Shown here piece by piece: positions 4,940 through 5,082 of a stretch of 5,793 bases of DNA (positions within the stretch are counted from its first letter, which is position 1; each line of letters begins with the position of its first letter). This stretch comes from Escherichia coli. GTDB taxonomy: Bacteria; Pseudomonadota; Gammaproteobacteria; Enterobacterales; Enterobacteriaceae. The position numbers and the translations under genes are program-made. Under the pieces are notes generated by a model. The model ran no database searches, had not been told where the DNA came from, and saw nothing but the letters and a program-made list of their open reading frames with translations. The DNA is taken from assembly GCF_003334255.1 (NCBI RefSeq), contig NZ_QOWU01000103.1; one strand, given 5' to 3'.

Positions 4940-5082
4940 TGCATAGTTATGCAGGCCCCTAAAAACGATTCTGACGCGTTTTTTGTGTTTTCCCTAGGTT
5001 TATCTTGTCTTTTTGAGTTTTTTGCGTCAGAAAGCGATTGAGAGCGTTTTAGAGGGTACGTACAAGAGGAGTTATGGTAAAT
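4940..5082. other. cer-like Xer (XerC/XerD) site-specific recombination site for plasmid multimer resolution: core 5055-5082 plus upstream accessory region with an ARG-box-like palindrome at 4940-4953
   Basis: Core GGTACGTACAA-GAGGAG-TTATGGTAAAT versus ColE1 cer GGTGCGTACAA-TTAAGGGA-TTATGGTAAAT as I recall it: one mismatch in the XerC arm, an identical XerD arm, and a 6-bp central region. The palindrome TGCATAGTTATGCA sits about 110 bp upstream, where cer has its ArgR box. Confidence 0.7.

Follow-up and report, generated by a model that had tools for sequence, protein, structure and literature searches.

Does the short inverted repeat that brackets a T-rich tract in the resolution site of a small Escherichia coli plasmid act as RNA, as DNA, or not at all? 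The window analysed here, 5,793 nucleotides of contig NZ_QOWU01000103.1, carries such a repeat between an ArgR-box-like palindrome and a Xer recombination core. The initial annotation proposed that the repeat might be a binding platform for accessory proteins, or the promoter and terminator of a small transcript like the Rcd RNA of ColE1. Judged by its sequence context, the repeat is within the accessory region of a cer-type multimer-resolution site, where it would mark the segment equivalent to Rcd in a family of small plasmids common in E. coli and Salmonella. On balance, we lean towards reading its arms as the plasmid's own short version of the long-range Rcd-type stem of cer sites.

A cer-type site and its inverted repeat

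The first 77 nucleotides of the window (1-77) are identical to the last 77 (5717-5793), an assembly overlap which shows that the window covers an entire circular plasmid of 5716 bp. The repeat region is identical to that of 5716-bp E. coli plasmids and of CP043021.1. The replication gene, which spans the junction (5239 to 452), encodes a 309-residue protein with a Pfam Replicase domain (PF03090, E = 3.5e-42), which we take to be a ColE2-type replication protein. Its leader contains an imperfect 17-bp inverted repeat at 5147-5208 (CAAACGCCCCTGAAATT / AATTCAAGGGGCGTGTG), followed by a U run on the minus strand; a weak, non-significant Rfam match to PK-repBA covers 5153-5201 on the minus strand (E = 0.96). 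This element is presumably the antisense-RNA or leader hairpin controlling Rep synthesis, as in ColE2-type plasmids. The plasmid also encodes a MobQ relaxase (1277-2362, plus strand) and two cargo genes within 3157-4686 on the minus strand, an unusual load for a small mobilisable plasmid. One encodes a LysE/RhtB-type amino-acid exporter-like protein of 190 residues (E = 9e-17), the other a protein of 316 residues that weakly matches SAM-dependent CmoA-like methyltransferases (E = 2e-6). At 1190-1212, in the gap between the relaxase gene and the divergent ORF 659-1192 on the minus strand, nine perfect base pairs enclose a 5-nt loop (ATCCCTGAT TAATT CAGGGAT region); this hairpin could be an oriT or an operator repeat. 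ColE2-like plasmids reportedly often carry XerCD-type sites (PMC2831885).

Alignment of the site with ColE1 cer extends over about 200 bp, and a profile made from 16 relatives recovers ColE1 cer at E = 4e-32. The window and ColE1 share the order of parts, namely the ArgR box, a TAAAA motif (TAAAAA in the window), a repeat around phased T runs, a GCGTTTT block, and the core with its XerC and XerD arms. The palindrome and the core flank the repeat, as the initial annotation described. The features of the site are as follows.

4939-4965, plus strand: segment equivalent to Pcer (GTGCAT at 4939-4944, 15-bp spacer, TAAAAA at 4960-4965), aligning with TTGCAT-15 bp-TAAAAT of ColE1
4940-4953, unstranded: ArgR-box-like palindrome TGCATAGTTATGCA, aligning with the ColE1 cer box TGCATAGGTATTCA
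4960-4965, plus strand: TAAAAA motif, the -10 equivalent
4969-4977, plus strand: left arm TTCTGACGC, with G4978 added as the wobble partner of U5023
4978-5023, unstranded: T-rich spacer, a putative U-rich loop in RNA and phased tracts in DNA
5024-5032, plus strand: right arm GCGTCAGAA, the 3' strand of the helix
5044-5050, plus strand: GCGTTTT block between the repeat and the XerC site
5055-5082, unstranded: Xer core, with the XerC arm GGTACGTACAA (5055-5065), the central region GAGGAG (5066-5071) and the XerD arm TTATGGTAAAT (5072-5082)

The palindrome is conserved in all 108 related sites collected (see below), and by analogy with ColE1 it would be bound by ArgR (PMC2831885, PMC5357621). Its centre lies about 108 bp from the XerC arm, in line with a single box placed approximately 100 bp upstream of the core. 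Between ArgR box and core, the DNA of cer is curved by A-T tracts that recur in phase about every 10.5 bp (PMC2831885), and the T runs of the window occupy the same stretch at offsets common to ColE1. The core aligns with GGTGCGTACAA-TTAAGGGA-TTATGGTAAAT of ColE1; its central region has 6 bp, as in psi/dif-type sites, compared with 8 bp in ColE1 cer. Among the relatives, central regions of 6, 7 and 8 bp are attached to accessory regions that otherwise resemble one another, suggesting exchange at the Xer core.

The inverted repeat is perfect over 9 bp, with 46 nt between the arms, and the wobble pair G4978·U5023 extends it to 10 bp as plus-strand RNA. The initial annotation had recognised it through two 8-mers. 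Both TCTGACGC and GCGTCAGA exist, each one base away from the position given there, at 4970-4977 (instead of 4969-4976) and 5024-5031 (instead of 5025-5032). The T-rich tract noted between the arms was confirmed, with 30 T among its 46 nt (65%). Its T runs, at 4979-4984, 4988-4991, 4999-5001, 5010-5014 and 5018-5023, are centred at approximately 4981, 4990, 5000, 5012 and 5021 and are thus about 10 bp apart. A second perfect 9-bp inverted repeat, AATCGCTTT (4929-4937) and AAAGCGATT (5031-5039), surrounds the ArgR box and the repeat studied here, sharing two nucleotides with the right arm of the latter. We set this outer repeat aside; its core is kept in close relatives and is absent from the sites of the L013 type.

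Could a 9-bp repeat arise as a chance match in T-rich sequence? Six perfect repeats of at least 9 bp with a span of up to 100 nt were observed in the whole 5.8-kb window, against 1.5 in shuffled sequences. Such repeats are therefore not rare window-wide, and the case for this one rests on its position and its relatives, not on its length. The overlapping outer repeat, which is not conserved in more distant relatives, likewise speaks for coincidence. However, when the 99-nt segment 4956-5054 was shuffled 1000 times with its dinucleotides preserved, only 0.5% of the results contained a perfect repeat of at least 9 bp. Moreover, most of the 48 distinct family members compared retain the repeat, and longer repeats fill the same interval in other cer families. 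Because of the conservation within the family, we consider a chance origin very improbable.

Rcd in ColE1 and the transcription signals of the window

In ColE1, the promoter Pcer lies within cer and has an unusual 15-bp spacer (PMC5935869). The Rcd RNA of 70 nt is also encoded inside cer and is predicted to form a single stem-loop (PMC5935869, PMC2831885, PMC4393325). Pcer is active when the plasmid is dimeric, FIS and XerCD repress it, and Rcd binds tryptophanase and raises indole (PMC4393325, PMC5935869, PMC5357621). Transcription of Rcd follows the direction of RNAII, from the ArgR side to XerCD (PMC2831885).

A hexamer scan allowing spacers of 14-19 bp found two promoter candidates with a 15-bp spacer on the plus strand of ColE1 cer, each matching 8 of 12 consensus positions. 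The first, TTGCAT-15 bp-TAAAAT (3795-3821), overlaps the ArgR box; the second, TGAACG-15 bp-TACAAT, runs into the XerC arm. As a transcript from the second would begin at the edge of the Xer core and exit cer, and Rcd has been reported within cer, we chose the first as the probable Pcer, inferring the promoter and the Rcd start from the sequence and secondary sources. Segment 3828-3897 of ColE1 folds at -36.6 kcal/mol (z -6.0) on the plus strand vs -22.9 kcal/mol on the minus strand. Rfam scans of the window and ColE1 cer returned no Rcd family, only the PK-repBA match mentioned above and a spurious miRNA match.

The equivalent of Pcer in the window is weak. Counted from the sequence, it matches 6 of 12 positions, compared with 8 of 12 in ColE1, and its -10 equivalent TAAAAA lacks the final T; it overlaps the ArgR box, as in ColE1. 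It scored under the threshold in both promoter scans, and many relatives carry TGAAAA or TGAAAG as the -10 equivalent. Scanning 4650-5300 for promoters and terminators gave nothing at the repeat. Two other hexamer matches on the plus strand of the window, TTGAGA-17-TACAAG, which runs into the XerC arm, and TTTAGA-19-TATGGT, which runs into the XerD arm, were rejected, as neither involves the repeat.

Neither strand of 4960-5055 contains a terminator-like site, the loop of the repeat being 46 nt long. The nearest U run begins 14 nt past the stem on the plus strand and 3 nt past the stem on the minus strand. Some relatives have a small G+C hairpin ahead of GCGTTTT, a possible RNA 3' end; it is present in ColE1-type and L013-type sites and absent in the window. 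The proposal that the repeat supplies a promoter and a terminator for an Rcd-type transcript thus retains its link to the Rcd-type transcript of cer sites and loses its assignment of the arms. The segment aligned with Pcer lies upstream of the arms, which coincide with no promoter-like site. The terminator scan was negative at the arms as well, and their ColE1-type equivalent is a long stem pairing the 5' and 3' parts of the RNA.

Read on the minus strand, the repeat is followed by UCGUUUUUA, the complement of TAAAAA, and might be a terminator or a barrier to transcription coming from the replication side. Five U within 3 nt of the stem, a z of -3.8 for the isolated minus-strand hairpin, and the orientation of the ColE1 genes to the right of cer, which lie on the minus strand and point into cer, would fit such a role. 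Yet the terminator scan found nothing on either strand, and a 46-nt loop is far beyond the terminator norm. The G·U pairs of ColE1-type helices would become A·C mismatches on the minus strand, and the hairpin at 5147-5208 already has its own minus-strand U run. We therefore give hardly any credence to a minus-strand terminator or barrier, for instance one that keeps the antisense RNA of the rep leader from reading through into cer.

A closing helix across cer families

For comparison, we collected cer-like sites from PLSDB hits and from scans of genome and metagenome contigs. The search pattern included GCGTTTT, so that the presence of this block in the collected sites is no measure of its conservation. 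A profile filter left 108 distinct sites, which correspond to 78 distinct sequences over the segment analysed. The layout of the accessory region is shared closely. The interval from the -10 equivalent to GCGTTTT is 90-91 nt in all families, the window and ColE1 included, and the T runs fall at about +23-27, +34-37, +45-49 and +82-85 from the -10 across families. Those of the window (+23-26, +34-36, +45-49 and +82-85, the last of which falls outside the spacer) coincide within 1-2 bases with the runs in ColE1-type and L121-type sites. In all three families compared, the 3' strand of the helix begins at +57/58, and the plus-strand hairpin topology is the same in the window as in ColE1.

The 13 distinct ColE1-type sites have a 17-bp helix in this interval, 98% paired, which matches the stem-loop published for the 70-nt Rcd RNA. 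The cells of this helix hold 38 G·U pairs and about two A·C combinations, an excess that identifies the plus strand as the folded strand. Between ColE1-type and L121-type sites, 7 of the 17 pairs are changed on both sides and still paired. Compensatory change together with a G·U bias, as expected of an Rcd-type RNA, is thus found among ColE1-type sites and in the comparison of these with L121-type sites.

The L121-type sites (L121, L122 and L212, from unclassified genome and metagenome contigs) connect this helix with that of the window. The sequence CGTCAGAA occupies +60 to +67 in the right arm of both families, and the left arm contains TTCTGGCG in L121-type sites as in the window. However, the left arm of the L121 type, complementary to the right arm, lies 10 nt farther from the -10, which is a good TAAAAT, so that complementarity has been kept and position has not. 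The L121-type helix has 14-15 bp with several G·U pairs, and its loop resembles that of ColE1.

Several differences between the window and ColE1 concern the stem itself. The stem of the window has 9-10 bp and about -12 kcal/mol, compared with 16-21 bp and -37 to -45 kcal/mol in ColE1. Its left arm ends 9-10 nt nearer the -10, and the loop comprises 44-46 nt instead of about 34. The arm sequences of the two are unrelated. Since arms differ wholly between cer families that rely on the same host proteins, they are unlikely to be specific protein recognition sequences. The idea of a binding platform for accessory proteins holds for the accessory region as a whole, by definition, and is disfavoured for the arms as such. 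The alignment with ColE1 cer accessory sequences, which the initial annotation had suggested as a check, places the repeat where ColE1 has the Rcd stem.

Over all 78 distinct sequences, the flanks pair better than 95% of shuffles in 53, the window among the better-pairing sites with p = 0.01; in about a third, many of the most divergent sites among them, the closing helix is not significant. A covariance model built from ColE1- and L121-type sequences only had its best hit in the window at 4966-5042 on the plus strand and paired the arms of the repeat, at a non-significant score of 7.7 bits (E about 1). In this model-fitted alignment, the 10 pairs of the window correspond to the inner 10 pairs of the ColE1 helix. 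A count of 7 compensatory pairs among 10 from ColE1 to the window was rejected, as it is true only in the model-fitted register. An ungapped register fixed on the T runs offsets the left arms by approximately 10 nt, which makes homology of the pairs not demonstrable; what we claim is therefore the hairpin topology, not the individual pairs.

Close counterparts of the window's arms come from small ColE1-type plasmids such as pHFQ5 and pP136-9 (L013-L016), where nearly the same arms, TCCTGACGCA / TGCGTCAGAA, stand at the same offsets in a region 71-75% identical to that of the window. The window lacks three elements of these sites: a strong hairpin inside the stem (UUUUCCGG...CCGGGGAAAA), a CGAU/AUCG extension at its outer end, and a CGCG-loop-CGCG hairpin before the U run.

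An Rcd-type stem or an element of the DNA

Within the window's own family, the helix is well paired and evolves like plain sequence. Among 48 distinct family sequences, the 10-bp helix is 91% paired compared with 90.6% in shuffles, so that the pairing reflects sequence conservation as such, and covariation in the helix is not significant (score 0.077 vs 0.072 in shuffles). The central pair 4974:5027 is A-U in 24 sequences, G-C in 3, C-G in 1 and G·U in 1, and is unpaired in the remaining 19. The conservation of the repeat in related sites, on which the initial annotation had made its proposal depend, accordingly holds in that most of the 48 members keep the repeat and other families have repeats in the same interval, with the reservation that approximately 40% of the family is mismatched at this central pair. 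The alignment columns contain no more G·U than A·C cells, unlike the strand bias of ColE1-type sites, and the duplex energy is nearly equal on both strands (-15.8 vs -15.6). The compensatory change and G·U bias seen in the other families are thus not found in that of the window. The left-arm columns are mostly invariant or nearly so, and the arms belong to the most invariant columns of an accessory region that is about 85% conserved as a whole, while the spacer varies between the T runs. When isolated, the 64-nt repeat folds with the arms as its closing helix (z -3.1). For a hypothetical transcript of 79 nt (4972-5050), the minimum-energy fold consists of local hairpins instead of the repeat, and its energy does not set it apart from shuffles (z -0.5).

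The Rcd-type reading that we favour would work as follows. In ColE1, Pcer, which by our assignment overlaps the ArgR box, is switched on in dimers and yields the plus-strand Rcd of about 70 nt, whose 5' and 3' parts pair into one long stem-loop. By binding tryptophanase, this RNA increases indole, and it holds back cell division until the dimers are resolved. In the window, a putative stem of 9-10 bp (4969-4978 with 5023-5032) would close a U-rich loop of 44-46 nt, and at the DNA level the T runs of the same loop are the phased tracts by which the accessory DNA is bent around ArgR and PepA. We infer that the stem of the window descends from the ColE1-type helix and still works as RNA. As a feature, the repeat is an ordinary one of a known kind, probably in weakened form. 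The weak -10, the short stem and the lack of a hairpin before the U run nevertheless suggest that expression of an Rcd-type RNA has been reduced or lost in this lineage.

The repeat might instead matter at the DNA level only, either as a remnant of the Rcd hairpin or as conserved accessory sequence wrapped by PepA and ArgR, with no functional RNA. The family of the window shows neither covariation nor strand asymmetry, with the mismatches at the central pair described above. Its -10 equivalent is degenerate, its U run follows no hairpin, and the conservation of the arms is unexceptional in a region conserved throughout; in addition, the PepA contacts in cer have been described as poorly defined (PMC2831885). 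What this explanation accommodates less easily is that the repeat persists in place although the arms are wholly different between families with the same host proteins. The left arm is found at different offsets in the window and in L121-type sites and is still complementary to the same right arm, and few columns are as invariant as those of the arms, in contrast to the variable spacer between the T runs. We thus regard a purely DNA-level role as possible, if doubtful. That the signals have decayed and the arms have been conserved might also mean that the repeat has a role of its own, as a DNA element of the synaptic complex or as a divergent Rcd-like RNA with another trigger or target, which we consider unlikely.

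According to the Rcd-type reading, the family's version of the ColE1 checkpoint hairpin is short, has weak support and stands behind a poor promoter. If no RNA is made from it, the Rcd/indole checkpoint would have no part in resolving the dimers of many natural plasmids, which would bear on the generality of this checkpoint. The finding has little importance beyond annotation unless this cer family has lost or repurposed the Rcd checkpoint.

The site matches 1283 plasmids in PLSDB, of which 417 are conjugative. The family is very widespread and is found on small plasmids of the ColE2/Col156 type and, as an integrated copy, on IncF plasmids. Two large conjugative IncFIA/FIB plasmids with the same cer family (L009, NZ_CP032165.1, and L012, NZ_CP054355.1) are also typed with a small-plasmid replicon cluster, consistent with integrated ColE2/Col156-type plasmids. 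Typical enterobacterial cer sites were also present on short contigs of assemblies labelled Streptococcus, Corynebacterium, Zoogloea, Thauera and Pseudovibrio (L024, L025, L056, L067, L081 and L017), where they most likely represent contaminating small plasmids or vector sequence.
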